Part shown: in pieces, positions 8,733 through 61,832 of the stretch
How the letters are laid out: every line of letters starts with the position of its first letter
Position numbering within the stretch: position 1 is the stretch's first letter
Assembly: GCF_044704955.1 (NCBI RefSeq)
Contig: NC_091977.1
Span: forward strand, 500,650,001 to 500,714,000
Length of the DNA: 64,000 nt
Reading direction: 5' to 3'
DNA from: Pristiophorus japonicus
Lineage: Eukaryota
Made by a program: the position numbers and the translations under genes
Notes under the pieces: generated by a model
Databases searched by the model: none
What the model was told of the DNA's origin: nothing
Seen by the model: only the letters and a program-made list of their open reading frames with translations

Positions 8733-11700
8733 TTACAAGGTGAGGCGGTCGGGAGCCTTTCCTTCCCTGGTGGACCGCCTCGGTACAAATGTCTGTTCTG
8801 GTGTGTTGGCTGTGCCCTTGCTGGGCTGGTGTGTTGTTGGCCCTGCAGGGCTGCTGAGTGTGCCTGCCCTTGATGGGCTGTTGGGCATCATGGGTTCGAT
8901 TTCCTGGTCCGGTGTGGTGTTGTTGATCCTTTGGTTGTGTGTTGTGGGCTCGAAAAAGGTGCGTGTCTGCTGTGGGTCGTTCAACGCAGTCTGTGAACCG
9001 CAGCCTCGTTTGGTACAGGCGCTTTCTGCAAATTTGTCCATTGTCTAGATTGACGACAAACACCCTACGCCCTAGCTATCACCGTGCCCGCGATCCACTT
9101 GGGACCATGTCCATAGTTTAGCACATACACAGGGGCATTCAGATCAATTTCCCGTGACACACTGGCGCAATCATTGTTTACATTTTGTTGCTGCTGCCTG
9201 CTCTCTACCTGATCATGCAGATTGGGGTGAACCAGCGAGAGTCTGGTTTTAAGTGTCCTTTTCATGAGTTGCTCAGCCGGGGGCACCCCTGTGAGCAAGT
9301 GGGGTCTCGTGTGGTAGCTGAGCAGTACTCGAGACAGGCGGGTTTGTAGTGAGCCTTCTGTGACTCATTTAAGGCTCTGTTTGATAGTTGGTATTGCCCG
9401 CTCTGCCTGCCCATTGGAGGCTGGTTTAAACGGGGCCGAGGTAATATGTTTGATTCCATTGCGGGTCATGAATTCTTTAAATTCGGCACTGGTGAAACAT
9501 GGCCCGTTGTCACTGACCAGTATTTCAGGCAGGCCGTGGGTGGCAAACATTGCCCTCGGGCTTTCAATGGTGGCGGTGGCGGTGCTTCCTGACATTATTT
9601 CACATTCAATCCATTTTGAAAAAGCATCCACCACCACCAGGAACATTTTACCGAGAAATGGGCCCGCATAGTCGCCATGAATCCTCGACCATGGTCTGGA
9701 GGGCGAGGACCACAAACTTAGTGGTGCCTCTCTGAGCGCGTTGCTCAACTGAGCACACGCGCTGCATTGCCGTACACAAGACTCTAAGTCAGAGTCGATA
9801 CCGGGCCACCACACGTGGGATCTGGCTATTGCTTTCATCATTACTATACCCGGGTGTGTGCTGTGCAGATCAGAGATGAAAATCTCCCTGCCCTTTTTGG
9901 GTAGCACTACGTGGTTACCCCACAACAGGCAGTCTGCCTGAATGGACAGCTCGTCCTTTCGCCGCTGGAATGACTCGATTGGCTCTTGCATTTCAACGGG
10001 GATGCTGGCCCAGCTCCCATGCAGTACACAGTTTTTTACGAGGGACAGCAGAGGATCTTGGCTGGTCCAAGTCCTAATCTGGCGGGCCGTGACAGGTGAT
10101 TTATCATTTTCAAACGCTTCCATGACCATCAACAAGTCTGAGGGCTGCGCCACCAACAACAAGTTTGCAGGCTGCGCCATTTTCACCCCCGTGGTGGGCA
10201 AAGGTAGCCGACTGAGAGCATCCGCACAGTTCTCGGTGCCTGGCCTGTGGCGGATGGTATACTAATACGCTGATAGCGCGAGTGCCCACCTTTGTATGCA
10301 GGCTGAGGCATTAGTATTTATCCCCTTGTTTTCAGCAAACAGGGATATGAGAGGCTTGTGATTTGGTTTCCAGCTCAAATTTGAGGCCAAACAGGTACTG
10401 ATGCATTTTCTTTACCCCGAACACACATGCTAATGCCTCTTTCTCAATCATGCTGGAGGCCCTCTCGGCCTTGGACAAGCTCCTGGAGGCATAGGCGACA
10501 GGTTGCAAATTCCCCGCAATGTTAGCTTGTTGTAAACACACCCGATGCCGTACGAAAACGCATCACATGCTAGCACAAGTCTTTTACACAGGTTATGCAA
10601 TACAAGCAGCTTGTTGGAGCATAAAATGTTTCTGGCTTTCTCAAAAGCAATTAAATAGTTTTTTCCCCATACCCAGTTCTCACCTTTATGCAATAACACA
10701 TGTCGGGGCTCTAAGAGGGTGCTTAACCCCAGTAGGAAGTTACCAAAATAGTTGAGTCGTCCCAGGAACGACCGCAACTCAGTGACATTCTGTGGCCTGT
10801 GCGCATTCCTGATAGCCTCTCTGTCTTGGCGTCTGTGGGCCGAATGTCGTCTGCCGCGATCTTTCTCCCCAAAAACTCCACTTCTGTTGCCATGAAGACG
10901 CATTTCGACCTCTTCAGTCGCAGCCCTACGCGATCCAGTCGCTGGAGGACCTCCTCCAGGTTTTGTCGGTGCTCAACGGTGTCCCGACCCGTGATCAATA
11001 TGTCGTCTTGAAAAACCACCGTGCATGGTACTGACTTGAGTAGGCTCTCCATGTTTCTCTGGAAGATCGCTGCAGCCTACCAAATTCCAAACGGGCATCT
11101 GTTATAGATGAACAGTCTCTTGTGCTTGTTGATGCAGGTGAGGCCCTTCGAAGACTCCTCCAGCTCCTGCGTCATGTAGGCCGAAGTCAGGTCGAGCTTG
11201 GTGAACGTCTTGCCTCCTGCCAGCGTCGCAAATAGATCGTCTGCCTTAGGTAGCGGGTATTGGTCCTGTCGCGAGAAACGACTAATAGTTACTTTATAAT
11301 CGCCGCAAATCCTGACCGCTCCATCACTTTTGAGTACTGGAACAATCGGGCTGGCCCACTCGCTGAATTCCACTGGGGAGATGATGCCCTCGCATTGCAG
11401 CCTATCCAGCTCAATTTCCACTCTCTCCCTCATCATGTGAGGTACCGCTCGCACCTTGTGGTGAATGGGTCGTGCCTCTGGGACCAAGTGGATCCGCACT
11501 TTCACCCCGGAAAAGTTTTCAATGCCTGGCTCAAAAAGGGAAGGAAATTTGTTAAGAACCTGGGTACATGAGGCCTCATCGATATGTGATAGCGCTCGGA
11601 TGTCATCCCAGTTCCAGCGTATTTTTCCCAGCCAGCTCCTTCCAAGCAATGTAGGGCCATCGCCCGGGACAATCCAGAGTGGCAGTTCATGCACCGTGCC

Positions 11701-12400
11701 CTCGTAGGTGACCTTGACCATGGCGCCGCCCAGGACAGTGATAAGCTCTTTGGTGTACGTTCTCAGTTTTGTGTGGATGGGGCTCAGGGCTGGTCTGAGT
11801 GCCTTGTTGCACCACAGTCTCCCAAACATATTTTTACTCATGATGGATTGGCTAGCGCCAGTGTCCAGTTCCATGGCTACGGGTAAGTCATTCAATTTTA
11901 CATTTAGCATTATAGATGGACATTTCGTCGAAAATGTGTGCACCCCGTGTACTTCAGCATCTGACTCCTCTCTCTGAGGCTCGAAATTGCTTTGATCCAC
12001 CATGGACAGATCTTCCTCTGCCATGTGGTGGTTAGTATCAAACTCACATTGTCCTGCAAGTCGCCTTAGCTCGGCAACGTAGCTCGCCATTTCCTGACCT
12101 TCAGATCGCTGGCACGTGTAGAACTGATACCTCGCCATCAGCACGCTCTTCCACGGGTTAAGATGCTCCCGAACCAGTGTACACAGCTCCTCATATGACT
12201 TATCTATGGGTTTCACCGGAGCCAGAAGATTCTTCATGAGGTATGGGCACCCTGTGCCCCGCAGACCGTGAGGAGGACCGCTCTCCATTTTGCAGCGCTT
12301 CCTTCTCCATCCAGCTCGTTGGCTACAAAGTGCTGGTCTAGCCGTTCGACATAGGCTTCCCAGTCCTCACCCTCCAAGAACTTCTCCAGGATGCTCTCAA
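8733..12400 (-). pseudogene. gag-pol (PR-RT-RH-IN) of Gypsy element 1, frameshifted, gag partly deleted
   Basis: Protease ELDTGAS, RT (WASPIVPV, RICGDY, KLDL, FQDD), RNase H (LACDA, YSMIEKEALA-like), and integrase HHCC plus DDE (VVVDAFSKW, VSDNG, SNGQAER), across ORFs 11077..12288, 10723..11052, 10448..10903, 10332..10541 and 9365..10201. Confidence 0.92.
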
Positions 12401-25272: not shown

Positions 25273-25502
25273 ACAGAGAGCTGTTGCGAGTGGGACATCA
25301 GATGACCACTATATACATGGTTTAGGGGATGACAGTTCCAGCATTGCTTGTGATCTGTGTGGCCTTAAGGGGACAAACCAGCTTATTAGCAGCAAAATAA
25401 TATATAGTGCTTTGTATGACTCAGTGCTCCGAACCTCATAAAACACGAGTAATGCTGCACTAGAATATAAATAGGGAAATCAACAAGAATACAAATCAAC
25501 AA

Positions 25503-26164
25503 GCAGTCCGGGGAGCGTCGAGAGAGGCGGGAGTCGAGAGAGGCAGCGGCCTATAAAAGGCTCAGCAGTCCGGGGAGCGTCGAGAGAGGCGGGAGTCGAG
25601 AGAGGCAGCGGCCTATAAAAGGCTCAGCAGTCCGGGGAGCGTCGAGAGAGGCGGGAGTCGAGAGAGGCAGCGGCCTATAAAAGGCTCAGCAGTCCGGGGA
25701 GCGTCGAGAGAGGCGGGAGTCGAGAGAGGCAGCGGCCTATAAAAGGCTCAGCAGTCCGGGGAGCGTCGAGAGAGGCGGGAGTCGAGAGAGGCAGCGGCCT
25801 ATAAAAGGCTCAGCAGTCCGGGGAGCATCGAGAGAGGCGGGAGTCGAGAGAGGCAGCGGCCTATAAAAGGCTCAGCAGTCCGGGGAGCGTCGAGAGACGC
25901 GGGAGTCGAGAGAGGCAGCGGCCTATAAAAGGCTCAGCAGTCCGGGGAGCATCGAGAGAGGCGGGAGTCAAGAGAGGCAGCGGCCTATAAAAGGCTCAGC
26001 AGTCCGGGGAGCGTCGAGAGAGGCGGGAGTCCAGAGAGGCAGCGGCCTATAAAAGGCTCAGCAGTCCGGGGAGCATCGAGAGAGGCGGGAGTCGAGAGAG
26101 GCAGCAGCCTATAAAAGGCTCAGCAGTCCGGGGAGCGTCGAGAGAGGCGGGAGTCGAGAGAGGC
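25503..26164 (+). repeat. 62-bp tandem monomers (10 full + 1 partial), each full unit with TATAAAA; CR1 5' UTR
   Basis: Unit GCAGTCCGGGGAGCGTCGAGAGAGGCGGGAGTCGAGAGAGGCAGCGGCCTATAAAAGGCTCA starting at 25503, 25565, ... 26123. Confidence 0.97.
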
Positions 26165-26217
26165 GTACCGGTGCAGCTCCAGCTGAGAGAAGTCAAAAAA
26201 GTAGAAAGAAATCAAAA

Positions 26218-26290
26218 GGTGACGTCACAGCCAACGTGGTAAGTGATTGGCTGCTGATTGGTGAGTAGTTTTTCTTTTTCTTTATTAGTC
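26218..26290 (+). promoter_or_regulatory. CRE palindrome, two inverted CCAAT boxes and splice-like signals in the CR1 5' UTR
   Basis: TGACGTCA (26220-26227), two GATTGG, GTAAGT and GTGAGT donor-like motifs, and a pyrimidine tract ending TTAG at 26288. Function is inferred. Confidence 0.5.
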
Positions 26291-26342
26291 AGTAACTTTT
26301 AACATTGTTGTCGGCAATTTAAGTGTATCTAAGGGTTAAGTC

Positions 26343-27290
26343 ATGGCAGGACAGCTCGGTCACGTGATATGCTCCTCCTGTACCATGTGGGAACACGGGG
26401 ACAACACCAGTGTCCCTGACGACTACATGTGCGGGAAGTGTGTCCACCTCCGGCTACTGACGGTCCGCGTTGCGGAGTTGGAGCTGAAGGTGGATTCACT
26501 CTGGAGCATCCACGATGCTGAGAATAACGTGAGTATCACGTGTAGCGAGTTGGTCTTACCGCAGGAGAAGGGTCCACAGCCAGCGAGGGAATGGAAGACC
26601 AGCAGGAAGAGTAGTGCAAGGAAGGTAGTGCAGGGGTCCCCTGTGGTCATCCCACTGCAAAACAGATACACTGCTTTGAGTGCTGTTGAGGGGGATGACT
26701 CATCAGGAGCGGGCAGCAGCAGCCAAGTTCATGGCACCGTGGCTGGCTCTGTTGCACAGGAGGGCAGGAAAAAGAGTGGGCGAGCGATAGTGATAGGGGA
26801 TTCAATTGTAAGGGGAATAGATAGGCGTTTCTGCGGCCGCAACCGAGACTCCAGGATGGTATGTTGCCTCCCTGGTGCAAGGGTCAAGGATGTCTCTGAG
26901 CGGGTGCAGGACATTCTAAAAAGGGAGGGAGAACAGCCAGTTGTCGTGGTGCACGTTGGTACCAATGACATAGGTAAAAAAAGGGATGAGTTCCTACAAA
27001 ATGAATTTAAGGAGCTAGGAGCTAAATTAAAAAGTAGGACCTCAAAAGTAGTAATCTCGGGATTGCTACCAGTGCCATGTGCTAGTCAGAGTAGGAATCG
27101 CAGGATAGCTCAGATGAATACGTGGCTTGAGCAATGGTGCAGCAGGGAGGGATTCAAATTCCTGGGGCATTGGAACCGGTTCTGGGGGAGGTGGGACCAG
27201 TACAATCCGGACGGTCTGCACCTGGGCAGAATCGGAACCAATGTCCTCGGGGGAGTGTTTGCTAGTGCTGTTGGGGAGGAGTTAAACTAA
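26343..27290 (+). CDS. CR1 ORF1p: CxxC-CxxC zinc finger, coiled coil, SGNH/GDSL esterase
   Basis: CSSC...CGKC; LRLLTVRVAELELKVDSL; NRYTAL; SGNH blocks IGDS, PGA, HVGTND and DGLH. 315 aa, uninterrupted. Confidence 0.93.
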   Translation: MAGQLGHVICSSCTMWEHGDNTSVPDDYMCGKCVHLRLLTVRVAELELKVDSLWSIHDAENNVSITCSELVLPQEKGPQPAREWKTSRKSSARKVVQGSPVVIPLQNRYTALSAVEGDDSSGAGSSSQVHGTVAGSVAQEGRKKSGRAIVIGDSIVRGIDRRFCGRNRDSRMVCCLPGARVKDVSERVQDILKREGEQPVVVVHVGTNDIGKKRDEFLQNEFKELGAKLKSRTSKVVISGLLPVPCASQSRNRRIAQMNTWLEQWCSREGFKFLGHWNRFWGRWDQYNPDGLHLGRIGTNVLGGVFASAVGEELN

Positions 27291-27367
27291 TATGGCAGGG
27301 GGATGGGAACCAATGCAGGGAGATAGAGGGAAACAAAAAGGAGGCAAAAACAAAAGACAGAAAGGAG

Positions 27368-30274
27368 ATGAGGAAAAGTGGAGGGCAGAGAAACCCAAGG
27401 CAAAGAACAAAAAGGGCCATTGTACAGCAAAATTCTAAAAGGACAGAGGGTGTTAAAAAAATAAGCCTAAAGGCTTTGTGTCTTAATGCAAGGAGTATCC
27501 GCAATAAGGTGGATAAATTAACTGTGCAAATAGATGTTAACAAATATGATGTGATTGGGATTACGGAGACGTGCCTCCAGGATGTTCAGGGCTGGGAACT
27601 CAACATCCAGGGGTATTCAACATTCAGGAAGGATAGAATAAAAGGAAAAGGAGGTGGGGTAGCATTGCTGGTTAAGGAGGAGATTAAGGCAATAGTTAGG
27701 AAGGACATTAGCTTGGATGATGTGGAATCTATATGGGTAGAGCTGCAGAACACCAAAGGGCAAAAAACGTTAGTGGGAGTTGTGTACAGACCTCCAAACA
27801 GTAGTAGTGATGTTGGGGAGGGCATCAAACAGGAAATTAGGGGTGCGTGCAATAAAGGTGCAGCAGTTATAATGGGTGACTTTAATATGCACATAGATTG
27901 GGCTAACCAAACTGGAAGCAATACGGTGGAGGAGGATTTTCTGGAGTGCATAAGGGATGGTTTTTTAGACCAATATGTCGAGGAACCAACTAGGAGGGAG
28001 GCCATCTTAGACTGGGTGTTATGTAATGAGAGAGGATTAATTAGCAATCTCGTTGTGCGAGGCCCCTTGGGGAAGAGTGACCATAATATGGTGGAATTCT
28101 GCATTGGGATGGAGAATGAAACAGTTAATTCAGAGACCATGGTCCAGAACTTAAAGAAGGCTAACTTTGAAGGTATGAGGCGTGAATTGGCTGGGATGGA
28201 TTGGCGAATGATACTTAAGGGGTTGACTGTGGATGGGCAATGGCAGACATTTAGAGACCGCATGGATGAACTACAACAATTGTACATTCCTGTCTGGCAT
28301 AAAAATAAAAAAGGGAAGGTGGCTCAACCGTGGCTATCAAGGGAAATCAGGGATAGTATTAAAGCCAAGGAAGTGGCATACAAATTGGCCAGAAATAGCA
28401 GCGAACCTGGGGACTGGGAGAAATTTAGAACTCAGCAGAGGAGGACAAAGGGTTTGATTAGGGCAGGGAAAATGGAGTATGAGAAGAAGCTTGCAGGGAA
28501 CATTAAGACGGATTGCAAAAGTTTCTATAGATATGTAAAGAGAAAAAGGTTAGTAAAGACAAACGTAGGTCCCCTGCAGTCAGAATCAGGGGAAGTCATC
28601 ACGGGGAACAAAGAAATGGCGGACCAATTGAACAAGTACTTTGGTTCGGTATTCACGAAGGAGGACACGAACAACCTTCCGGTTATAAAAGGGGTCGGGG
28701 GGTCTAGTAAGGAGGAGGAACTGAGGGAAATCCTTATTAGCCGGGAAATTGTGTTGGGGAAATTGATGGGATTGAAGGCCGATAAATCCCCAGGGCCTGA
28801 TGGACTGCATCCCAGAGTACTTAAGGAGGTGGCCTTGGAAATAGTGGATGCGTTGACAGTCATTTTCCAACATTCCATTGACTCTGGATCAGTTCCTATC
28901 GAGTGGAGGGTAGCCAATGTAACCCCACTTTTTAAAAAAGGAGGGAGAGAGAAAACAGGGAATTATAGACCGGTCAGCCTGACATCGGTAGTGGGTAAAA
29001 TGATGGAATCAATTATTAAGGATGTCATAGCAGTGCATTTGGAAAGAGGTGACATGATAGGTCCAAGTCAGCATGGATTTGTGAAAGGGAAATCATGCTT
29101 GACAAATCTTCTGGAATTTTTTGAGGATGTTTCCAGTAGAGTGGATAAGGGAGAACCAGTTGATGTGGTATATTTGGACTTTCAGAAGGCGTTCGACAAG
29201 GTCCCACACAAGAGATTGATGTGCAAAGTTAGAGCACATGGGATTGGGGGTAGTGTACTGACATGGATTGAGAACTGGTTGTCAGACAGGAAGCAAAGAG
29301 TAGGAGTAAATGGGTACTTTTCAGAATGGCAGGCAGTGACTAGTGGGGTACCGCAAGGTTCTGTGCTGGGGCCCCAGCTGTTTACACTGTACATTAATGA
29401 TTTAGATGAGGGGATTAAATGTAGTATCTCCAAATTTGTGGATGACACTAAGTTGGGTGGCAGTGTGAGCTGCGAGGAGGATGCTGTGAGACTGCAGAGC
29501 GACTTGGATAGGTTAGGTGAGTGGGCAAATGCATGGCAGATGAAGTATAATGTGGATAAATGTGAGGTTATCCACTTTGGTGGTAAAAACAGAGAGACAG
29601 ACTATTATCTGAATGGTGACAGATTAGGAAAAGGGGAGGTGCAAAGAGACCTGGGTGTCATGGTGCATCAGTCATTGAAGGTTGGCATGCAGGTGCAGCA
29701 GGCGGTTAAGAAAGCAAATGGCATGTTGGCCTTCATAGCAAGGGGATTTGAGTACAGGGGCAGGGAGGTGTTGCTACAGTTGTACAGGGCATTGGTGAGG
29801 CCACACCTGGAGTATTGTGTACAGTTTTGGTCTCCTAACCTGAGGAAGGACATTCTTGCTATTGAGGAAGTGCAGCGAAGGTTCACCAGACTGATTCCCG
29901 GGATGGCGGGACTGACCTATCAAGAAAGACTGGATCAACTGGGCTTGTATTCACTGGAGTTCAGAAGAATGAGAGGGGACCTCATAGAAACATTTAAAAT
30001 TCTGACGGGGTTAGACAGGTTAGATGCAGGAAGAATGTTCCCAATGTTGGGGAAGTCCAGAACCAGAGGTCACAGTCTAAGGATAAGGGGTAAGCCATTT
30101 AGGACCGAGATGCGGAGGAACTTCTTCACCCAGAGAGTGGTGAACCTGTGGAATTCTCTACCACAGAAAGTTGTTGAGGCCAATTCACTAAATATATTCA
30201 AAAAGGAGTTAGATGAGGTCCTTACTACTAGGGGGATCAAGGGGTATGGCGAGAAAGCAGGAATGGGGTACTGA
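27368..30274 (+). CDS. CR1 ORF2p: APE endonuclease + reverse transcriptase (frame open from 27266; true start may be a frameshift)
   Basis: APE motifs LNARS, ITET, VYRPP, GDFN, LDWVL, SDH; RT motifs [32 protein letters not shown]. 968 aa, uninterrupted. Confidence 0.96.
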   Translation: MRKSGGQRNPRQRTKRAIVQQNSKRTEGVKKISLKALCLNARSIRNKVDKLTVQIDVNKYDVIGITETCLQDVQGWELNIQGYSTFRKDRIKGKGGGVALLVKEEIKAIVRKDISLDDVESIWVELQNTKGQKTLVGVVYRPPNSSSDVGEGIKQEIRGACNKGAAVIMGDFNMHIDWANQTGSNTVEEDFLECIRDGFLDQYVEEPTRREAILDWVLCNERGLISNLVVRGPLGKSDHNMVEFCIGMENETVNSETMVQNLKKANFEGMRRELAGMDWRMILKGLTVDGQWQTFRDRMDELQQLYIPVWHKNKKGKVAQPWLSREIRDSIKAKEVAYKLARNSSEPGDWEKFRTQQRRTKGLIRAGKMEYEKKLAGNIKTDCKSFYRYVKRKRLVKTNVGPLQSESGEVITGNKEMADQLNKYFGSVFTKEDTNNLPVIKGVGGSSKEEELREILISREIVLGKLMGLKADKSPGPDGLHPRVLKEVALEIVDALTVIFQHSIDSGSVPIEWRVANVTPLFKKGGREKTGNYRPVSLTSVVGKMMESIIKDVIAVHLERGDMIGPSQHGFVKGKSCLTNLLEFFEDVSSRVDKGEPVDVVYLDFQKAFDKVPHKRLMCKVRAHGIGGSVLTWIENWLSDRKQRVGVNGYFSEWQAVTSGVPQGSVLGPQLFTLYINDLDEGIKCSISKFVDDTKLGGSVSCEEDAVRLQSDLDRLGEWANAWQMKYNVDKCEVIHFGGKNRETDYYLNGDRLGKGEVQRDLGVMVHQSLKVGMQVQQAVKKANGMLAFIARGFEYRGREVLLQLYRALVRPHLEYCVQFWSPNLRKDILAIEEVQRRFTRLIPGMAGLTYQERLDQLGLYSLEFRRMRGDLIETFKILTGLDRLDAGRMFPMLGKSRTRGHSLRIRGKPFRTEMRRNFFTQRVVNLWNSLPQKVVEANSLNIFKKELDEVLTTRGIKGYGEKAGMGY

Positions 30275-30837
30275 AGTTGCATGTTCAGCCATGAACTCAT
30301 TAAATGGCGGTGCAGGCTAGAAGGGCCGAATGGCCTACTCCTGCACCTATTTTCTATGTTTCTATGTTTCTATGTTTCTAATACATTTTTATTATTTGGC
30401 AAAAGCTTGGTAAAGGTTGTGATCTAAAAATACAAGAGGATAATGATTCATCTGATCCTGCAGAAGGAGTTTTTAATGCTGCTATAATTTAATACTTTTA
30501 ATGAACAAGGTAACTCTTACTGCAAGACATTAGACCTTATCACATCTGCTTAATATCCCTTTTACATGTCTTCTCTGATTATTCATGCACGAAAGAATCA
30601 TGTCTGATGACCTGATTTGTGCGATCAAAGTGACAATCTTTTTTCTGCAGGTCAGTTTCAAAGCACTTCAGAAACCAGTCTAGCTGCTATCAATTGAAAT
30701 TTGTGAAACACAGTAAAGAAGATCACACAATTTTCAGAGGGGAGCTAATCAATTGTTTTTGTTTTTTCTTATTTTTTTCCCCTCTGTAGTTTTCACTCTC
30801 CCTCTCCTAAAGGTCTTTAACTTTAATGATTATTCTT

Positions 30838-34852: not shown

Positions 34853-35204
34853 CAAACATGGACAAAAGAGCTGAATTTCAGAGGTGAGGTGAGAGTTACT
34901 GCCCTTATCAAGGCAGCAACTGACCAAGTGTGGCATCAAGGAGCCCTAGTAAAACTGAAGTCAATGGGAATTAAGGGGAAAGCTCGTCACTGGCTGGAGT
35001 CTTATCTAGCACAAAGGAAGATGGTTGTGGTTGTTGGTCAATCATCATAGCCCCAGGACATCGCTACAGGAGTTCCTCAGGGCAGTGTCCTAGGCACAAA
35101 CATCTTTAGCTGCTTCATCAATGACCTTCCCTCCATCATAAGACAGAAGTGGGGATGTTCACTGATGATTGCACAGTGTGCAGTTCCATTTTCAACTCCT
35201 CAGA

Positions 35205-37640: not shown

Positions 37641-38599
37641 AGGGACAGCAGTGCTGACTCCATGTCAAAGGGCGCAGGGCTCTCCAAGCTCTGCTCAGCT
37701 AGAAGCAGATGCTGTAGCCCAGGGGCCGTTGATAATCAAGTTAATTCTGGACAGCAGCGAGTATGTGCGATGTACTGGCAGGTGTTCCAGCCACACTGTG
37801 CACCATTGCAGAGAGATTGGCGGAATCTGCCTCAAGCATGAGTCGCATGCTGTTGCAGGCCTTTGTGATGATGTCTTCTTCCACGGAAAGAGTGGCCAAC
37901 TGCACGGAGCATCAAACGTGGCAATCACACGAGGGCATGCAGGCTTTCACCAATGCATGTCGCCTGAAATAGGGTGAGTGATACCCTAGCCTTGGCCGTT
38001 CATCACACCACTGTTCTGCAGCAAAGTGTTGTCCAGCTCACTGCTGGCAGGGAAGTGAGACTAGGCCATGAGGAATAAGGATAAAGGGGACATGGAAGTG
38101 GGGACTCGGCTCAAATCACTCCCATTTCTAACCCATTGGCCCTCCCTCAGTCAGTAGCCCACACACTGCCTCATGTCCCAATGGGCGAGTCTGTCTCTGC
38201 ACATATGCAGGTGGAGCAGTCTTTGGCGGGACCCTCGTGGGCTCCAGAGGACATCGGCCAAGAGCAACTCAGCAGTCAGGGCAGGGATCGGAGCAGCCTA
38301 CCTCACCAGGGGTCGCACCATGTAGAAGCGCTAGGAAAAGGAAGAGTAAAGATTTCTAGTTGCACAAGGGTATGAACATACGTGTGGTGTGTTACATATT
38401 GTTAGATTGGTAAGAGTCTGTTTTCTATGTGAAGCACATAAATATTATTCTTTTGCAACAGTTTCATGTCTTGGCCTTTCTTGATTGCTTGCTGGCAAGT
38501 GGCCTGTTCAGTCGTGTGCTGAATGGGAAGACATGAATTGATGATAACCAATTGGGGGACTGTGAAAGGGATGCTTGGTTGTTTGCAGGACTGGTGGAA

Positions 38600-39726
38600 C
38601 CCAAGTGAACCTCTCAACAATGAGGGCATCCCTGTCAGCAATGTGTGCCACTGGTGGTGCATTGCCCGCATCACCTTCTGCTTCCACCTCCTCCCCTCCT
38701 CCCCGAAATCCTCTGCAGAGGCTCTGTGCTCTGTTCCTCCTGCAGGTCCAAACCTTGCTGCTGTGCAATTCTGTGCAGAGTGTAACACACCTAGACCATT
38801 CTGGAGACCCTGGCTGGTGCGTGCTGTAGGGCACCTCGAGATCTGTCCAGGCACCTGAAGTGCATCTTCAGCATGCGGATGGCTTGTTCGATTACACATC
38901 TGGTGGTGATATGGCATTCATTGTATCGCTCCTGGGCCTCATTCCTTGGGTTTCCGAGAGGTGCCATCAGCCAGGTTTTAAGTGGGACTCTGAGCAGCTG
39001 GCCATTAACTCTGCTTCGAGGTGCAGAGAGATCAGGGAGGGTGGATTGCCGCAGGACGAAAGCATTGTGGCAGCTGCCTGAGAATCACGTGCATCTTTTT
39101 GTGGTTGCACACCAGCTGCACATTGATGGAGTGGACGCCCTTGTGGTTAATAAATGCTCCTGGATGATCTGGGGGAGTCTTAATTGTCACGTGTGCAGTC
39201 GAAGATGCTCTGCACCTGTGGGAAGCCAGCCAGAGCTGCAAACCCGAGCACCCGCTCTTTCTGACTGGTGTCATCGCAGGCAAAGTGTACATAATTGGCG
39301 GCCCTGGCAAATAAGCCATCGGTCTTGTGCATTTGTGCATTATGCCACTGACTGTGAGATCCTGCACATGTCTCTGGCAGATTCCTGAAAGTATCCAGAA
39401 GCAAAGAAGTTGAGGGCTGTGGTGACTTTGACAGCTTCTGGTAAAGCCTGGCCACCAGGTCCAGTTGGCAGCAGGTCTTGTTCCAGCAGCCTGCAAATGT
39501 CTGTCATCACATGACACAACACCCTGAGCGTCCTGAGACGCTGGTGTTCAGACGTGTCAAGGATGCTTATCCTCTGCCTGTAGATACATGTGTGCCAGGT
39601 ATGGCCACTTGCGAGCTGCATCTCTCTGCTGCTCCCCTCTCTCTTGTGGGGCATCAGGTCTGTGAGCAGCAGTCTGTTGCTGGGTCTGCTGCTGCTGGTG
39701 CTGTTGTTAGTCACCTTCATCCTCAT
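38600..39726 (-). pseudogene. Harbinger transposase (HARBI1-like) relic
   Basis: AVKVTTALNFFASGYFQ, GFAALAGFPQVQSIFDCT, FINHKGVHSINVQLVC and IEQAIRMLKMHFRCLD across frameshifts. Confidence 0.88.
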
Positions 39727-40356
39727 CAGCCAGAAGTTTAAATTCAGCCCATAGTAACATTGTGAAGGAAATTCGCAGGTTATGCCCAGAAATGTAGCTG
39801 TAGAGCTAGAGCAGGGCAGTGCTTAGTTCCCCGGGGCAGATACTTATAGTAAAGCTGCACTAAGTACATTGAACAACCAAACCAGGCTTCACACAGCTCA
39901 CTGCTGGGAATGCACAGCCCTAAAACTTCTTCAAGTGAGGAATTCATGAAGGCTTATACCCATCATTATTTTGACCCCACCCCCGCATAGAATGGCCTTC
40001 CTGTGCTCCCTGCTGACAACCTACACCCGAGACAACCCATAGTGCCACATTGCTGACAGTAATCCAGGAACTATCGTGGGGTTCTTCAGGCACTTTATTA
40101 AGCATAGTAAACATTGCAATGAATTTGGAAATTTTTTCTCAGGAGCACTTTCCCACCACTGAAACAGTTGGTTATTTAAAGTGTTTAGTGCGTTTACAGT
40201 GAAACTCTAACCTACAGTCAATTATTATAATATATGTGCACAAAGTTGCACAGGCTTTTGAAACTCAGTCCTGGGAAAGAACCTAATAAAACATCTGGGG
40301 ATTCATGATTTATGTTTTTAAATATTATTTTTTAATTATTTATTTTTGAAAACATT

Positions 40357-43664: not shown

Positions 43665-45042
43665 CTTGATGTACATGGCCTTCTTTGACCTCACAAAGGC
43701 CTTTGACGCTGTCAACCATGAGGGAATATGGAGCGTCCTCCTGCGTTTCGGCTGCCCTCAAAAGTCTGTCACCATCCACCATCTGCTCCACGGTGACATG
43801 CAAGTCGTGATCCTGACCAATGGATCCGCCTCAGACCAAATCCACGTCCGGACCGGGGTCAAGCAGGGCTGTGTCATCGCACCAACACTCTTTTCGATCT
43901 TCCTTGCTACATCTCACCCTTCGCAAGCTCCCCGCCGGAGTGGAGCTAAATTATAGAACAGATGGGAATATGTTCAACCTCCACCGCCTCCAGGCTAGAT
44001 CCAAGGTCATCCCATCCTCCATCATCAAACTACAGTACACAGACGATGCTTGCGTCTGCGCACACTCGGAGGCCGAACTCCAAGCCATTGTCAACATCTT
44101 CACCGAGGCCTAAGAGAGCATGGGCCTTATGCTAAACATCCGCAAGATAAAGGTCCTCTACCAACCTGATCCCACTACACAGCACTGCCCCGCCGATTGT
44201 CAAAATCCACGACAAGGCCTTGGACAAGGTGGACCATTTTACCATACCTCGGGAGCCTACTGTCAGCAAGAACAGACATTGACGATAAAGTCTAACACCG
44301 CCTTCAGTTTGCCAGTGCAGCTTTCGGTCACCTGAGGAAGAGAGTGTTTGAAGACCAGGACCTCAAACCCGGCACCAAGCTCATGGTCTACAAGGCAGTA
44401 GTGATACCCGCCCTCCTATATGGCTCAGAGATGTGGACTATATACAGCAGACACCTCAAAGCGCTGGAGAAATACCATCAGTGCTGGCTCCGCAAGATCC
44501 TGCAAATCCATTGGCAGGATAGTCGCACCAATGTTAGCGTTCTCGCTCAGGCCAACATCCCCAGCATCGAAGCATTGACCACACTCAATCAGCTCCGTTG
44601 GGTGGGCCACATCGTCCGCATGTCCGACACGAGACTCCCAAAGTCAGCGCTCTATGCGGAGCTTCGACATGGCAAACGAGCCCCAGGTGGGCAGAGGAAA
44701 CGCTTCAAGGACAACCTCAAAGCCTCCTTGACAAATTGCAACATCACTCTGACTCCTGGGAATCCCTGGCCGAAGACTGCCCAAAGTGGAGGAAGAGCAT
44801 CCGGGAGGGCGCTGAGCACCTCGAGTCCCATCGCTGAGAACAAGCAAAAAGTAAGTGTAGACAGCGGAAGGAGCGTGCGTCAACCGAGGCTCTCCGACCA
44901 CCCTTTCCTTCAACCACTGTCTGCCCCACCTGTGACATAGACTGTAGGTCCCCGCATTGGACTCCTCAGTCACCTGAGAGTTCACTTTTAGAATGGAAGC
45001 AAGTCATCCTCGACTCCAAGAGACTGCCTATGATGATGATGA
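43665..45042 (+). mobile_element. 5'-truncated RTE-clade LINE
   Basis: AFFDLTKAFD, GVKQGCVIAPTLF, LQYTDD, TKLMVYKAVVIPALLYGSE; (GAT)n tail. Confidence 0.92.
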
Positions 45043-49989: not shown

Positions 49990-51005
49990 GAGGGATAGAA
50001 TAAAACTAAAAGGGCTTACACAAATGCAAAGAATAGTGGAAATCCCGTTGAGTTGGAGAGATATAAACAGCAAAGTGAAAGAAAGTAGTAAGAGCAGCAC
50101 AAAGGGACTATACGAGAAAAAACTTGCCGGAGAAATCAATGATAACACTAAGGTTTTACAAGTGTATTGAGAGAAAATGCTTGAATAGGGATGATGTGGG
50201 CCCCCTTAAAGACAGGTACAGGCAATATTGTAATTGAAAATAAGGAAGTGGGGTAGGCTTGTTAAATGATTACTAAGTTTCACTCCTCACCGTAGCAGAG
50301 GAGGATAAAATACCAGTGAAGCGAGGAAAAATTCAAATAAATCAAGGAGAGGAACTTACTAGATTTAATAATAAGTACAAAAACGGAAACAGAGAAAAGA
50401 TTGAGTCTGAAAATTGACACATCTCCAGACCCTGATGGTTTCCACCCCAGGGTGAACAGAAATAGGCGAGGAAATTGCAGATGCTTTAGCTCTCTTGATT
50501 CAGGAATTGTCCCCTTGGATTGTAAAATTGCCAATGTCACTTCTTATTTAACAAACGTGAGAGAGAAACCAGGAAATTATAGACCTATTAGTTTAATATC
50601 TGTTGTAGGAACTAAAGGAATCCGTTATTTGGGACAGAGTGACTGAGGACAAGCATGAACTGATCAGAGAGCCAGCATGGATTTGTAATGGGTAAGTCAT
50701 GTCTACTTACCTCGTCAAACTTTTTGAGGTGGGTATGGGTATGTATTCCAATTGGCAGTTTAAGACTAGCAGTGCCCCCGCCGAGATCTGTACTCAGTTT
50801 TTCGCTATATTTATCAAAATAACTTAGAAGAATAGAGAGCGGTATAACCAAGTTTGCTGACAACACTATGCTAGGCGGCACAGTAAGTAGTCAAGATGGG
50901 AGCAGAATGTTCCAAAGGGGCATTAATAGATTAAGTGAGTGGAAAAAAACTGACAGATGAAGTTGTGTGGGGAGAAATGTGAGGGCATCCACTTTGGACC
51001 AAAGA
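49990..51005 (+). mobile_element. Very old CR1 ORF2 fragment
   Basis: SPDPDGFHPRV, DCKIANVT, PGNYRPISL, SQHGF and KFADNT remnants. Confidence 0.75.
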
Positions 51006-51070
51006 AGGAAAGCCTGTCAAACATCCAGTTTTGAATGAACTATCATCAGCGTTCCAGTTAAGCTGCGCAG

Positions 51071-51912
51071 TGCTCTGCAGCTCCCCCCCGTGGCTCTCTG
51101 CAGCTCCCCCCCCGTGGCTCTCTGCAGCTCCCCCCCCGTGGCTCTCTGCAGCTCCCCCCCCGTGGCTCTCTGCAGCTCCCTCCCCGTGGCTCTCTGCAGC
51201 TCCCCTCCCGTGGCTCTCTGCAGCTCCCCCCCCGTGGCTCTCTGCAGCTCCCTCCCCATGGCTCTCTGCAGCTCCCCCCCGTGGCTCTCTGCAGCTCCCC
51301 TCCCGTGGCTCTCTGCAGCTCCCCTCCCGTGGCTCTCTGCAGCTCCCGCCCCGTGGCTCTCTGCAGCTCCCCCCCCGTGGCTCTCTGCAGCTCCCCCCCC
51401 GTGGCTCTCTGCAGCTCCCCACCGTGGCTCTCTGCAGCTCCCCCACGTGGCTCTCTGCAGCTCCCCCCCCGTGGCTCTCTGCAGCTCCCCCACGTGGCTC
51501 TCTGCAGCTCCCCCCACGTGGCTCTCTGCAGCTCGCCCCCGTGGCTCTCTGCAGCTCCTCCCCGTGGCTCTCTGCAGCTCCCCCACCGTGGCTCTCTGCA
51601 GCTCCCCCACGTGGCTCTCTGCAGCTCCCCCCCCGTGGCTCTCTGCAGCTCCCCCACGTGGCTCTCTGCAGCTCCCCCCCCGTGGCTCTCTGCAGCTCCC
51701 CCCCCGTGGCTCTCTGCAGCTCCTCCCCGTGGCTCTCTGCAGCTCCCCCACGTGGCTCTCTGCAGCTCCCCCCCCGTGGCTCTCTGCAGCTCCCCCCCCG
51801 TGGCTCTCTGCAGCTCGCCCCCGTGGCTCTCTGCAGCTCTTCCCCGTGGCTCTCTGCAGCTCCCCCACGTGGCTCTCTGCAGCTCCCCCCGTGGCTCTCT
51901 GCAGCTCCCCCG
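51071..51912. repeat. 23-24-bp minisatellite (~35 units)
   Basis: Unit GTGGCTCTCTGCAGCT plus a C7-8 run with variants. Confidence 0.97.
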
Positions 51913-52019
51913 CCACCGGCTCAGCTCATCATTTTTAAATAGGAAACTCCACACATTTTGAATGGGCCACGCAACTCGTTAAATGCACCGCACACTTAAA
52001 AAGAAAATTAAAGGGAACA

Positions 52020-54248: not shown

Positions 54249-55349
54249 TCACCTCCCCCAAACGTCTTTCAGGCGGTCGACGCTCTCTCGTGGAGCGCCG
54301 CAGTTGGGGCTCTGGTGGTTAGGCCTTGGCATGCACCTCTGTCGCCTGAGGTGATTCCGGCCTGTCCGGGCTGGCCGCAGCGACTGTGCATGCTGGTGAA
54401 TGTCCTTGTTGCTCGTTCTCTGGCAGTGGTGTGGGTAGCATCTTATGATCTTCCTCAGGTTCCTCAGTGTCCATGCTGAACCTTTTCTTTACTTGGTCCA
54501 GATGTTTGCAGCATATCTGCCTATTGTTAAGTCTGACCACTATGACCCTGTTCACCTCTTTGCCAATTACAGTACCCTCAAGCCACTTGGGTCCCAAAGC
54601 ATGATTGAGAACGAATACAGGGTCATCAATTTCTATGCATCTCCCCACTGAGTTGCGATCATGGCACTCGATTTGGGACTGGCGCTTGCCCTCAACAATG
54701 TCTGACAGAGCTGGATGAATGAGGGACAGCCGCGTTTTAAGCATGTGTTTCATGAGTAGTTCCTCGGGCGGGACTCCAGTGAGTGAATGCGGGCGGGACC
54801 TATAGGCCAGCAGGAGGTGGTACTGAAGGGAGGGTCCTTGAATCCGGAGCATGACCTGTTTTATGATTTGAAACGCACGTTCCGCATGGCCATTGGAAGC
54901 CAGCTTGAACGGTGCTGTCCTGAAGTGTTTGATACCATTACCCGACATAAACTCTTGGAATTCATAGCTAGTGAAACACGGGCCATTATCGCTAACCAGG
55001 ATGTCCGGCAAGTCGTGGGTCGCAAAGACCGTACGCAGACTCTCCACAGTGGTTAATGTCGTGCACGAATTCAATATGATGCACTCGATCCATTTCAAGT
55101 ATGCATCGACAACAATCAGGAACATTTATCCCATGAACGGGCCCACGTAGTCTACGTGAATATGTGACCATGGCCTGGTGGGCCAGGGCCATGGACTGAG
55201 TGGGGCCTCCCTGGGGGCATTTCCCTGCTGAGCACACGTCGTGCAGCTGCGAACCCAGTGTTCCAGGTCTGAGTCAATTCCTGGCCACCATACATGTGAC
55301 CAGGCAATGGCCTTCATTAGCACGATGCCTGGGTGCTCGCTGTGGAATT

Positions 55350-58300: not shown

Positions 58301-58905
58301 CTTTTTACCTCTCTACCATCTGTTTCTGACTCCATATTACCTCGCCCTGTCTCGCTGCATAGATTCCCATCCCCCTGCCATATTAGCTTAAACACTCCCG
58401 AACTGCATTAGCAAATGTTACCCCCAGGACATCAGTTCCAGTCCTGCCCAAGTGCAGACCGTCCCTTTTGTACAGGTCCCACTTCCCCCAGAACTGGTTC
58501 CAATGTCCCAGGAATTTCAATCCCTCCCTCTTGCACCACTGCTCAAGCCACGTATTTATTCTAACTATCCTGCTCCCTCTACTCTGATTAGCACGTGGCA
58601 CTGGTAGCAACCCAGAGATTACTACCTTTCAGGTCCTACTTTTTCATTTAACTTCTAGCTCCCTAAATTCAGCTTGTTGGACCTCTTCCCGCTTCTTACC
58701 TGTATCGTTGGTACCTACATGTACCACGACAACTGGCTGCTCACCCTCCCTCTCCAGAATGCTCTGCAGCCGCTCCGAGAAATCCTTGACCCTTGCACCA
58801 GGGAGGCAACATCCCATCCTGGAGTCTTGGTTGCGGCCGCAGAAACTCCTATCTATTCCCCTTACAATACAGTCCCCTATCACTATAGCTCTCCCACTCT
58901 TTTTC
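55350..58905 (-). mobile_element. CR1 truncated within ORF1, inserted in Gypsy 2 pol
   Basis: Tail at 55350. ORF2 pieces 56107..56541 and 56766..58121; ORF1 SGNH pieces 58383..58610 and 58644..58883. The Gypsy frame rejoins as AFIRE / HSEHPGIV. Confidence 0.95.
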
Positions 58906-61832
58906 CCTGATGAATGCCTCCCTGGCCTTCTGGGGCATGACTACATGGCTGCCGCATAGCAGGCAGTCAGCTTGGATGGAGAGTACGTCCATCCGTCTGC
59001 GGAACGGCCTGACCACCTCGGGGCACGCTCCGTGTGTGGGTGCCCAATCCCCAGTCAGGACACATTTCTTTATCAGGGATAGGAGGGGGTCTCTGTTGGT
59101 CCAGATTTTGATCTGGCGGGCTGTGATAGGAGAGCCTGCGGTGTCAAAAGCCTCAATGGCCATGACCATCTCTGCACTTTGCTCCAACGCCCCCTCGATG
59201 GTCGCCAGTGGGAGCCTGCTGCGCGCGTCAGCGCAATTTTCGGTGCCTGTCCGGTGCCGTATGGTGTAGTCATACGTAGCCAGCATGAGAGCCCATCGCT
59301 GTATGCGACCTGATGCATTGGCATCGACAGCCTTGCTGTCAGACAACAGGGATGTTAACGGTTTGTGGTCCATTTCTAACTCGAACCTTCTGCCGAAAAG
59401 GTACTGGTGCATCTTTTTCACCCCATAGACACATGCGAGTGCTTCCTTTTCAACCATCCCATACCCCTTTCTGCTTGGGAGAACGACCTAGAGGCATAAG
59501 CCACAGGTTGGAGTTGGCCCTCACCATTACTCTGCTGCAACACGCACCCAACCCCATAGAATGATGCATCGCATATCAAATCCAATTTCTTACAGGGGTC
59601 ATACAGGGTCAATAACTTATTAGAACAAAGCAGGTTCTGCGCCCAATTGAAAGCCCATACCTGACAGTCCCCACAAAACCAATCGCAACCTTTACGCAGG
59701 AGCACGTGTAGCAGCTCCAGCAATGTACTTATGTTTGGCAGTAAGTTCCCGAAATAGTTCAACAGTCCCAGAAACGAACGCAACTCTGATGTATTGCCGG
59801 GCCTGCGCACGCGACGAATTGCCTCCGTTTTGGATTCGGTAGGCCGGATCCCGTCTGCAGCAACCCTCCTACCCAAAAACTTGACCCCTGGGGCCAAAAA
59901 CACACACTTGGACTTCTTTAGTCGCAAGCCTACCCGGTCCAGTCGGCATAGCACCTCCTCCAAGTTGTGGAGGTGTTACTCGGTGTCTTGACCCGTGATT
60001 AGGATGTCATCTTGGAATACGATTGTTCCAGGGATGAATTTAAGCAAGCTTTCCCTGTTCCTCTGGAACATGGCGGAAGACACTCGGTTGATGGTGGCCT
60101 TGTAGTCACCACAAATCTTGACCGAGCCATCCGCTTTAAGGACAGGAACGATGGGGCTTGCCCAGTCACTGAATTCAACAGGCAAAATTATGCCGTCTCT
60201 TAGCAGCCTGTCCAACTCACTCTCAATTCTCTCACGCATCACATACAGCACGGCTCTGGCTTTGTGGTGCACTGGTCTGGCGTCCGGGGTGATGCGTATC
60301 ACTACTTTGGTGCCCTTAAAGGTCCCGACACCTGGTTGAAAAAGTGGCTCGAATTTCTGTAGGACCTGTGAGCATGAATTTCGCTCCACAGATGAAATGA
60401 CGTGCACATCCCCACATTTCCAGTTCATCTCGGCTAACCAGCTCCTCCCCAAGAGCACGGGACCATTCCCCGGAAAAATCCAGAGTGGCAGCCGGTTCTC
60501 CGATTCTTTGTATGAGACCACCAAATTTGCACTGCCTAGTACTGGGATGATCTCTCTAGTGTACGCCCGTAGCTGCGTGTCAATGCGTTCCAATTTGGGC
60601 CTGTTAGCTTTGTGTGGCCATCGTTTTTAAAATTGTTGGGCACTCGTAAGTGATTGGCTGGCTCCTGTGTCCAGCTCCATGTGTATCGGGATGCCATTTA
60701 ATAGAACTTTCATCATCATAGCTGGCGTTTTGGTCTACGAGCTGTAGACGTCTGCCACATGAACCCTCTGGACTTCAGCATCCATAGCTTGCCCCCAAGC
60801 ATCACTCTGCCTTGCACACCCCTCGTCTGGTTCCTCTGCCTCGTAAACTAGCCTCGCTACGGGCTTTCTGCATATTCTGGCCAGATGTCCCTTGAAGTTA
60901 CAGTTTCTACACATAAATTGTTGAAATTTACAGGTTTTTGCAGTATGTCTGCCACTGCACCTCCAGCATAAGCGGAGATTGTTGTGAACAAAGGAACTGT
61001 TAGCAGGCATTCCTCTCTGATTGTTTCTTTGATTACTCCTGATCACTCTGTTCCTGAGTGTCAATGGTCCCATCCCGGGATGCATTGTCCCTTGTGATGG
61101 CGTGAATTGCTGATGCCCCTGCCATTGTCTTTGTTGCCGGCCCACTCTAGAGTCTGTTGCTGCCTGGGCGGTGTCGAATTGCCCTTGCCTGCCTGTGGGG
61201 TTCTGAGTCTCGTTTACAACGTTAACTCCCTGGTCCATCGCCACGTTGGAACCAGGGCTGTGCACGTAAATTATCTTGGTCTCCTCTTCCCCTGCCATGA
61301 ATGTCTGAGCTATCAACGTTGCCCTTTCCAAAGTCAAGTCCTTGGTCTCAATAAACTTCCTGAAAATCCCGGCATGACCAATGCCCTCAATGAAAAAATC
61401 CTTTAACATCTCCCCACTTCAGGCGTCTGTGAACTTACAGAGGCTGGTTAAACGCCGAAGGTCCGCAACGAAGTCTGATATGCTTTGTCCCTCCCGACGC
61501 CGGTGTGTATAGAACCGGTGCCGGGCCATGTGTATACTGCTCGCCAGTTTGAGGTGCTCACCGATCAGAGTGCTGAGCTCTTCAAAGGACTTGTCCGCCG
61601 GCTTCTCGGATGTGAGCAGGTCTTTCATCAGCGCATACGTCATGGATCCACAGCTGGTCAGTAGATGCGCCCTCCGCTTGCCACCGATTCCTCTCCCAGC
61701 CAGTCCTTCGTGACAAAGCTCTGCTGGAGCCTCTCAATGAAGTCGTCCCAGTCCTCACCGACACAGTACCGTTTCTCGATGCTACCGGTGGCCATCCTCA
61801 TGGGTCGTTGATTCCCGTTTCTCGTCGCCAAA

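Follow-up and report, generated by a model that had tools for sequence, protein, structure and literature searches.

A conserved ORF1/ORF2 junction in esterase-type CR1 elements of Pristiophorus japonicus and other animals: a likely −1 ribosomal frameshift site without canonical 3′ structure

How long interspersed nuclear elements (LINEs) express their second open reading frame (ORF2) is an open question, and for L1 the route is called unknown in PMC5009743. The same paper names U_UUA_AAC and G_GGA_AAC among the shiftiest heptamers, and PMC3542737 describes the use of G_UU(A) by equine arteritis virus and places the 3′ structure of canonical −1 frameshift signals 5 to 9 nt downstream. A −1 frameshift has been stated for ORF2 of the Dictyostelium elements TRE5-A and TRE3-A in the figure legend of a review (PMC5911963), so the idea has precedent among LINEs with an APE endonuclease. 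CR1 elements, which make up 11.8% of the chicken model chromosomes (PMC11835228), include a subgroup 7 whose ORF1, type IVB, combines a zinc finger/leucine zipper (zf/lz) region with an esterase (Metcalfe & Casane 2014, PMC4120745). Here we describe the junction between ORF1 and ORF2 of a CR1-type LINE in a 64,000-nucleotide stretch of the Pristiophorus japonicus genome (contig NC_091977.1, positions 500,650,001 to 500,714,000; hereafter the window, to which all positions refer).

The junction is found at 27281-27290 of the forward strand, the CR1 label being based on architecture (PMC4120745), not on a reference phylogeny. G_TTA_AAC stands at 27281-27287 in the X_XXY_YYZ register of the ORF1 frame (GUU being tolerated under the rule given in PMC3542737), immediately before the ORF1 stop, and ORF2 follows in the −1 frame. 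The heptamer, the adjacent stop, the −1 phase and a downstream run of five G (G5) are conserved at the nucleotide level, and the ORF2 AUG is not. This strongly conserved signal is real and likely a −1 frameshift site without canonical 3′ structure. Judging from the sequence, we assign a probability of roughly 0.8 to −1 ribosomal frameshifting at the heptamer, which would yield an esterase-endonuclease-reverse transcriptase (RT) fusion of about 1310 aa. We still infer the gag-pol-like fusion that the initial annotation of this DNA had proposed, now with the support of a heptamer and a phase that are conserved and an AUG that is not. The features of the junction are as follows.

27281-27287 (+): candidate slippery heptamer, here G_TTA_AAC and in most other lineages T_TTA_AAC (sequence, copy comparison)
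27288-27290 (+): ORF1 stop TAA directly 3′ of the heptamer, TAG or TGA in other subfamilies (copy comparison)
27292-27294 (+): ATG after the ORF1 stop, in the +1 frame and not that of ORF2, not conserved (copy comparison)
27298-27307 (+): G5 run 10 nt past the heptamer and the next GGG, candidate unstructured stimulator (copy comparison)
27368-27370 (+): first in-frame ORF2 ATG of the window subfamily, at a position that is not conserved (copy comparison)
58383-58392 (−): T_TTA_AGC TAA at the junction of another copy, which has decayed (sequence)

In the window copy, the −1 frame has its upstream TAG at 27263-27265 and is open from 27266 to 30274, long and uninterrupted across the site as −1 frameshifting requires; the combined length is 315 + 995 = 1310 aa. 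Every coordinate in the initial annotation (heptamer, stop, upstream TAG, ATGs, G-runs and second copy) proved correct, and its reading of G_TTA_AAC in exact register before the stop, with ORF2 in the −1 frame and the ATG at 27292 in the wrong one (+1), was borne out by the sequence. The ORF overlap of about 25 nt that it described exists in the window copy but is not a fixed feature, the upstream TAG being TCG, CAG or GAG elsewhere. The second copy (58392-58383, −) has, as annotated, T_TTA_AGC and a Lys where the Met of the window copy lies (codon 27 of the ORF2 frame), with another Met 10 codons earlier (codon 17). Its AGC is copy-specific decay; the same-subfamily copies L186, L209, L224 and L227 read T_TTA_AAC.

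Under the proposed mechanism, tRNA-Leu and tRNA-Asn would re-pair from UUA AAC to GUU or UUU AAA, and a minority of ribosomes would slip back one base to make the fusion protein, with the predicted junction peptide ...GEELN-LIWQGDGN (...GEELNLIWQGDGN). For most ribosomes translation would end at the codon that follows, freeing ORF1p and giving a high ORF1p:ORF2p ratio. The least certain step is the pause, which might be due to the stop beside the heptamer together with a G-run lacking structure, and not to a pseudoknot. A search for longer fused proteins gave 11 matches, all gene models or chimeras, with no naturally fused family, and carries little weight. P0039, P0073 and P0121 (which run into the −1 frame as FKL) were rejected as natural fusions, being single broken copies or models.

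The 5.9-Gb shark genome contains 30,463 places that match two anchors flanking the site with a free gap of 8 to 18 nt. The gap was of 13 nt in 99 of the 100 matches listed; a gap of 14 nt, the length that fuses both frames, occurred at 92 of the 30,463 places and was heterogeneous. A variable ORF1/ORF2 phase among copies, which the initial annotation had named as evidence against its proposal, was therefore not observed. With shorter anchors, X was G or T at 35,111 places genome-wide versus A or C at 658. GAG>GAA and GGG>GGA at X would leave ORF1 unchanged, yet the common variant was the non-silent GAG>GAT. To guard against circularity, copies were also retrieved by their ORF1 protein and the end of the ORF was predicted from an anchor lacking the last 6 residues. 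[G/T]TTAAAC was found exactly at the predicted place in 121 of 155 protein-anchored copies (29/30, 20/30, 34/50, 20/25 and 18/20), and most of the misses, which are point changes or indels, fall in old copies. One old family is among these sets; its best matches share about 60% identity with the protein P0044, which is itself 44% identical to the window ORF1. The adjacent stop varies among subfamilies (TAA, TAG, TGA). Between 27235 and 27345 five places vary by more than 3%; one is the G/T exchange at X, and TTAAAC and the G5 run are free of them, as counted in contigs of four runs from three organisms under an 80% likeness filter that favours similar copies. When the genome was searched with the ORF1 of a catfish or with one ending in GN, the matches were confined to families already known.

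These data also bear on frame correction at the RNA level, in which splicing at a YAG, transcriptional slippage or a subgenomic RNA would join the frames without any ribosomal shift. The CTAG|G of avian-type copies looks like a 3′ splice site and CTAAT like a branch point, yet other subfamilies have TAA or TGA as their stop, and the AG is thus not kept throughout. Although genomic copies derive as cDNA from the element's RNA, the additional nucleotide is found only at the 92 heterogeneous places mentioned above; no joint was seen at the junction in the contigs examined, which can show presence but not absence and say nothing of strand, level or splicing. We consider this explanation very improbable.

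The constraint at the junction is better explained at the level of RNA than of protein. Among 22 hand-picked, related lineage representatives of about five deep lineages, the terminal Leu was TTA in all 22, versus 4 of the 72 other Leu codons in the same stretch, and the terminal Asn position was AAC in 21 of 22, versus 10 of 27 elsewhere; the codon before TTA ended in T or G in 22 of 22, across 10 different codons. Shark and avian-type rows are 28 to 56% identical over the 23 codons upstream of the heptamer, so that, aligned across copies, the heptamer is kept at synonymous sites in lineages that have diverged just upstream of it. The tree of the 22 ORF1 C-termini is mostly unresolved (3 of 19 branches starred), and only the split between avian-type and other sequences was used.

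A profile search with representatives at 50% identity listed 150 proteins; the 111 that reach close to the profile end were examined, and 76 end within 3 residues of the expected end. Their C-terminal pairs were LN in 53, GN in 8, SN in 3, KN in 1 and others in 11, with a search profile that itself ends in LN and favours LN matches. Since L, G and K are encoded by XXA codons (UUA, GGA and AAA), ends in LN, GN and KN fit U_UUA_AAC, G_GGA_AAC and A_AAA_AAC, the last two sites being deduced from the protein ends of the GN and KN proteins. The residue before LN had a codon unable to end in U (K, Q, E, M or W) in 1 of 101 cases versus 104 of 505 at positions −4 to −8, and the residue before GN was Gln in 6 of 7, as CAG_GGA_AAC would need. 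Such covariation of codons and termini is predicted by a putative slippery site and not by a constraint on the fold. In the ORF1 alignment L314 and N315 hardly vary, as would be expected if the site were conserved for the proteins only, with the terminal Leu-Asn serving the esterase and having no translational role. However, this would not account for synonymous codons that are fixed at the heptamer and free at neighbouring Leu and Asn, nor for a penultimate residue that switches among L, G, S and K, and it leaves the ORF2 of AUG-less lineages unexpressed; we find it hardly credible. The distant ORF1s P0273 and P0305 end in FFH or FFR, and others have a longer tail ending in SLN; these ends may represent further slippery-site types.

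A search with the ORF1 alignment found 44 metagenome and 4 genome-contig loci, 17 of which were inspected at the DNA level; most of the remaining loci are cut off before ORF1 is complete or encode distant SGNH proteins. All 11 inspected metagenome loci with an ORF1 ending in LN read [G/T]_TTA_AAC, with TAG next in 10, and ORF2 was in the −1 frame in all 8 LN-ending metagenome loci with an ORF2 match. Nine of the 11 we take to be avian-type, a label based on ORF2 motifs. Among the others, L031 is sturgeon-like, its C-terminus being near-identical to an Acipenser sinensis protein, and L032 is echinoderm-like, with named relatives in sea cucumbers (53-55%). The LN terminus is found in 52 of 54 ORF1 proteins with an intact C-terminus (the catfish proteins being left out by the pattern), and LN-ending ORF1s are named from rays, skates, Callorhinchus, Latimeria, eel, sturgeon, frog, turtles, lizards and snake. 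The SGNH ORFs of L048, L050, L053, L054, L056 and L071 have other ends and are without the heptamer site. Viral contigs yielded no relatives (one unrelated match and 12 motif matches without CR1 homology), and plasmids and phages yielded no match.

Some further relatives deserve mention. The esterase-ORF1 elements L032 and P0179-P0195 have sea cucumber relatives, and many end in SN instead of LN. P0006, labelled as a Pseudomonas aeruginosa SGNH/GDSL hydrolase, is 61% identical to the window ORF1 and ends in GLN; it is likely vertebrate contamination. In L053 (1290-1480), a single copy of a different SGNH-ORF1 element, ORF1 and an endonuclease-like ORF share one frame and are split by one TGA followed by CTA, possibly a stop-codon readthrough junction.

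Of 154 loci, 53 have a −1 frame that stays open between the junction and the endonuclease Asn, and these were surveyed for ORF2 start codons. Their linker over that interval measures 33, 37, 48, 51, 52, 55, 66, 70 or 88 codons, and the first Met is at codon 2, 17, 20, 26, 27, 38 or 50, or absent before the Asn. The nine loci without it (L031, L148, L150, L151, L159, L166, L167, L170 and L175) belong to lineages in which AUG initiation would truncate the enzyme. In one shark family group of 27 copies, Met was present in at most 2 of 26 in any column scored. A universally conserved in-frame ORF2 AUG, which would have spoken against the initial annotation, is thus not found; the first Met moves or is absent.

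Several observations weigh against frameshifting. As many as 44 of the 53 open-frame loci have a Met upstream of the endonuclease Asn, at codon 17 or 27 in most young shark copies, and an in-frame ATG lies 2 nt beyond the TAG in L033, L034, L036 and L045, 4 of the 8 avian-type loci that were read further than the junction. No conserved hairpin or pseudoknot was found 3′ of the heptamer in the folds and representatives, stems and partners being inconsistent, and the G5 run is mostly 10 nt downstream, outside the canonical spacing of 5 to 9 nt. Conservation extends to the Gly encoded at the G-run, and part of the signal may therefore be at the protein level; the conserved terminal Asn could also serve the esterase fold. 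Catfish esterase ORF1s end in RTI, so not every esterase LINE carries the signal. To these should be added the hand-picked, related sequences of the codon test and the LN end of the search profile. The Met codons and the lack of a frameshift-type RNA structure would suit termination-reinitiation, in which translation would terminate with ORF1 and resume for ORF2 at an AUG or non-AUG codon close by, the conserved letters being termination/reinitiation context. Reinitiation is favoured for L1, in an AUG-independent form (PMC5009743), and shown for SART1 (PMC3708506).

However, no conserved start is present near the CR1 stop, where CTA is followed by ATA, GCT, GAA, GTA, GAT or GGT, and AUG-less lineages exist. 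The in-frame start at the stop that is characteristic of SART1 and of termination upstream ribosomal binding sites (TURBS) is absent from the window copy and in frame only in the four avian-type loci. The UGGGA motif, sought 40-90 nt upstream in the window copy only, has as its sole upstream counterpart a TGGGA at 27192-27196, which precedes the stop by 92-96 nt and overlaps a Trp codon that is invariant. Reinitiation also leaves unexplained the restriction of X to T or G, the invariable TTA for Leu, the constant −1 phase and the pattern of LN, GN and KN ends. We regard it as unlikely as the general route, and it may operate alongside frameshifting in subfamilies with a close AUG.

Regarding the stimulator of the proposed −1 frameshift, the canonical stem-loop or pseudoknot 5-9 nt downstream has no conserved counterpart, and we class the junction not as a canonical signal but as a variant that likely functions in a similar way. 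A z below −2 was obtained in 1 of 9 folds, for a weak hairpin of −7.4 kcal/mol in the window copy. Among 118 loci with an intact heptamer, 30 of which were chosen by an anchor containing the G5 run, the run starts at +10 in 79, at +8 in 11 and elsewhere in 5, and is absent in 23. It is common to loci of the shark, avian-type, sturgeon-like and echinoderm-like groups, with different peptides encoded there (QGDG, KGEG, KGGE and AGAR), and G5 runs occur in ORF2 at only 0.3-4.8 per kb. In the old shark family L109-L138, the G-run begins 8 nt past the heptamer, with a length that varies widely among copies.

The initial annotation had suggested four G-runs (27298-27302, 27305-27307, 27318-27320 and 27328-27330 in the window copy) as stimulator. 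The first, about 7-10 nt downstream, is conserved, and mostly the second. A four-run quadruplex as general stimulator was rejected: at least four G3 tracts within 60 nt are found in 5 of 21 representatives, and two of the three loops are long in the window copy. Synthetic G-quadruplex stimulators act best 6-8 nt downstream with short loops, according to PMC3919603. Two long-range partners for the G-run were also discarded: a C-rich stretch 650-690 nt upstream, good in 5 of 9 elements but Pro-rich coding and absent in L032, and a 3′ UTR partner, not top-ranked in the elements containing a 3′ UTR candidate. In PRRSV, the nsp2 −1/−2 frameshift is stimulated by a protein-bound C-rich motif (PMC7939443), likewise a short motif near the shift site without folded structure. 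The CR1 motif is G-rich and has no known binding protein, which makes this an analogy only; by it, one might guess at a G-run that is bound by a protein or acts in the mRNA channel. A stimulator made of an adjacent stop and an unstructured G-run would be of a kind absent from the reviews examined.

The element itself spans 25502-30380 (+) and is apparently full-length. Its remaining features are these.

25502-26164 (+): array of 10.7 monomers of 62 bp that opens the element at its 5′ end (repeat analysis)
26343-27290 (+): ORF1, 315 aa, with a Cys-rich N-terminus, an SGNH esterase and the C-terminus ...GEELN* (PF13472, PDB 4C1B)
27287-30274 (+): ORF2, 995 aa, counted in the −1 frame from the codon at which translation is predicted to resume, with a basic linker, APE endonuclease and RT (open frame from 27266)
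27485-27487 (+): endonuclease Asn (LNARS), aligned with Asn14 of the L1 endonuclease (profile alignment)
30347-30380 (+): 3′ tail of 8-bp repeats (CTATGTTT x4.4) (repeat analysis)

The 62-bp monomers are near-identical, each with a TATAAAA, and we take the array to resemble the monomer promoters of mouse L1. The 3′ tail of 8-bp tandem repeats is a CR1 feature, and the endonuclease Asn aligned with L1 Asn14 is presumably important for catalysis. ORF1 (open frame 26340-27290) matches PF13472 at E 6.4e-13, which identifies the SGNH esterase of the CR1 esterase type; PDB 4C1B, at E 2.6e-29, is its sole solved relative at E ≤ 0.01, and an ESM Atlas search gave SGNH clusters only. In the ORF1 alignment, C30, C33 and L46 of the N-terminus are invariant and L39 and L53 nearly so, and the closest named matches are from Pristiophorus japonicus (90%). 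ORF2 carries PF03372 and PF00078, that is, an APE endonuclease and an RT. Its endonuclease found no PDB match as a single sequence, and a profile was needed to match the L1 endonuclease structures. A Cys occupies 27572-27574 in the ITETWL motif of the endonuclease, where most other copies have Trp, and the window copy may therefore be defective despite its open frames.

Other mobile elements surround the CR1 copies. Broken fragments of what we take to be gypsy-type LTR retrotransposons (protease, RT, RNase H and integrase-like) lie at 9365-12366, 54319-55125 and 58849-61418 (−), one of them abutting the 5′ side of the second CR1 copy. The regions 38402-39822 (−) and 44296-44940 (+) presumably correspond to Harbinger-like transposase fragments and an RTE-like RT fragment. 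A GC-rich tandem array with several frames open is found at 50931-51980.

A broader and more tentative proposal, to which we give somewhat less than even odds, is that the esterase CR1 elements of sharks, bony fish, amphibians, reptiles, birds and echinoderms generally reach ORF2 by −1 frameshifting and did so ancestrally. Some lineages would have swapped to G_GGA_AAC or A_AAA_AAC, the adjacent stop and the unstructured G-run would drive the shift, and the RT would be made as a Gag-Pol-like fusion with the esterase. The available text of PMC5009743 does not mention CR1, and neither "frameshift" nor "overlap" occurs in that of PMC4120745. Our literature search, which did not reach the primary CR1 papers of 1997 and 2003 or Repbase, found no paper proposing CR1 frameshifting. 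The 1997 turtle CR1 paper reportedly describes overlapping ORFs and might hold an early suggestion of a frameshift.

CR1 is a dominant bird repeat, and the junction is present in more than 30,000 copies in the shark genome. A conserved −1 site offers a precise and cheap test of how a LINE expresses ORF2. If the proposal is true, ORF2 proteins annotated from the first AUG would be wrong at their N-terminus, which matters for the design of active CR1 constructs. It would also count as a rare frameshift of animal nuclear genomes with deep conservation, and a structure-free stimulator may emerge from it.

Compared with known systems, the element resembles CR1 subgroup 7 with type IVB ORF1 (PMC4120745), likewise a two-ORF APE-RT LINE with a Cys-rich N-terminus and an SGNH esterase in ORF1; that group is called exclusively vertebrate, whereas related ORF1s here are named from sea cucumbers. 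The solved relative of ORF1 is the ORF1p esterase of zebrafish ZfL2-1 (PDB 4C1B, PMC3905857), in the available text of which the word "frameshift" does not occur. L1 and SART1 likewise have a bicistronic LINE RNA and must reach ORF2, but they make a separate ORF2p; the UAAUG of SART1 is overlapping and in frame, while the CR1 ATG after the stop is out of frame. TRE5-A and TRE3-A, also APE-type non-LTR elements and said to need a −1 frameshift for ORF2, differ in lineage and ORF1 type. A parallel in the signal itself is the ORF1a/1b −1 frameshift of nidoviruses (PMC3542737, PMC5009743), which uses the same heptamers in the same register and fuses an upstream ORF to a polymerase. Nidoviruses have a 3′ stem-loop or pseudoknot 5-9 nt downstream, whereas the CR1 junction has no conserved structure there and carries instead an adjacent stop and a G5 run 7-10 nt downstream.

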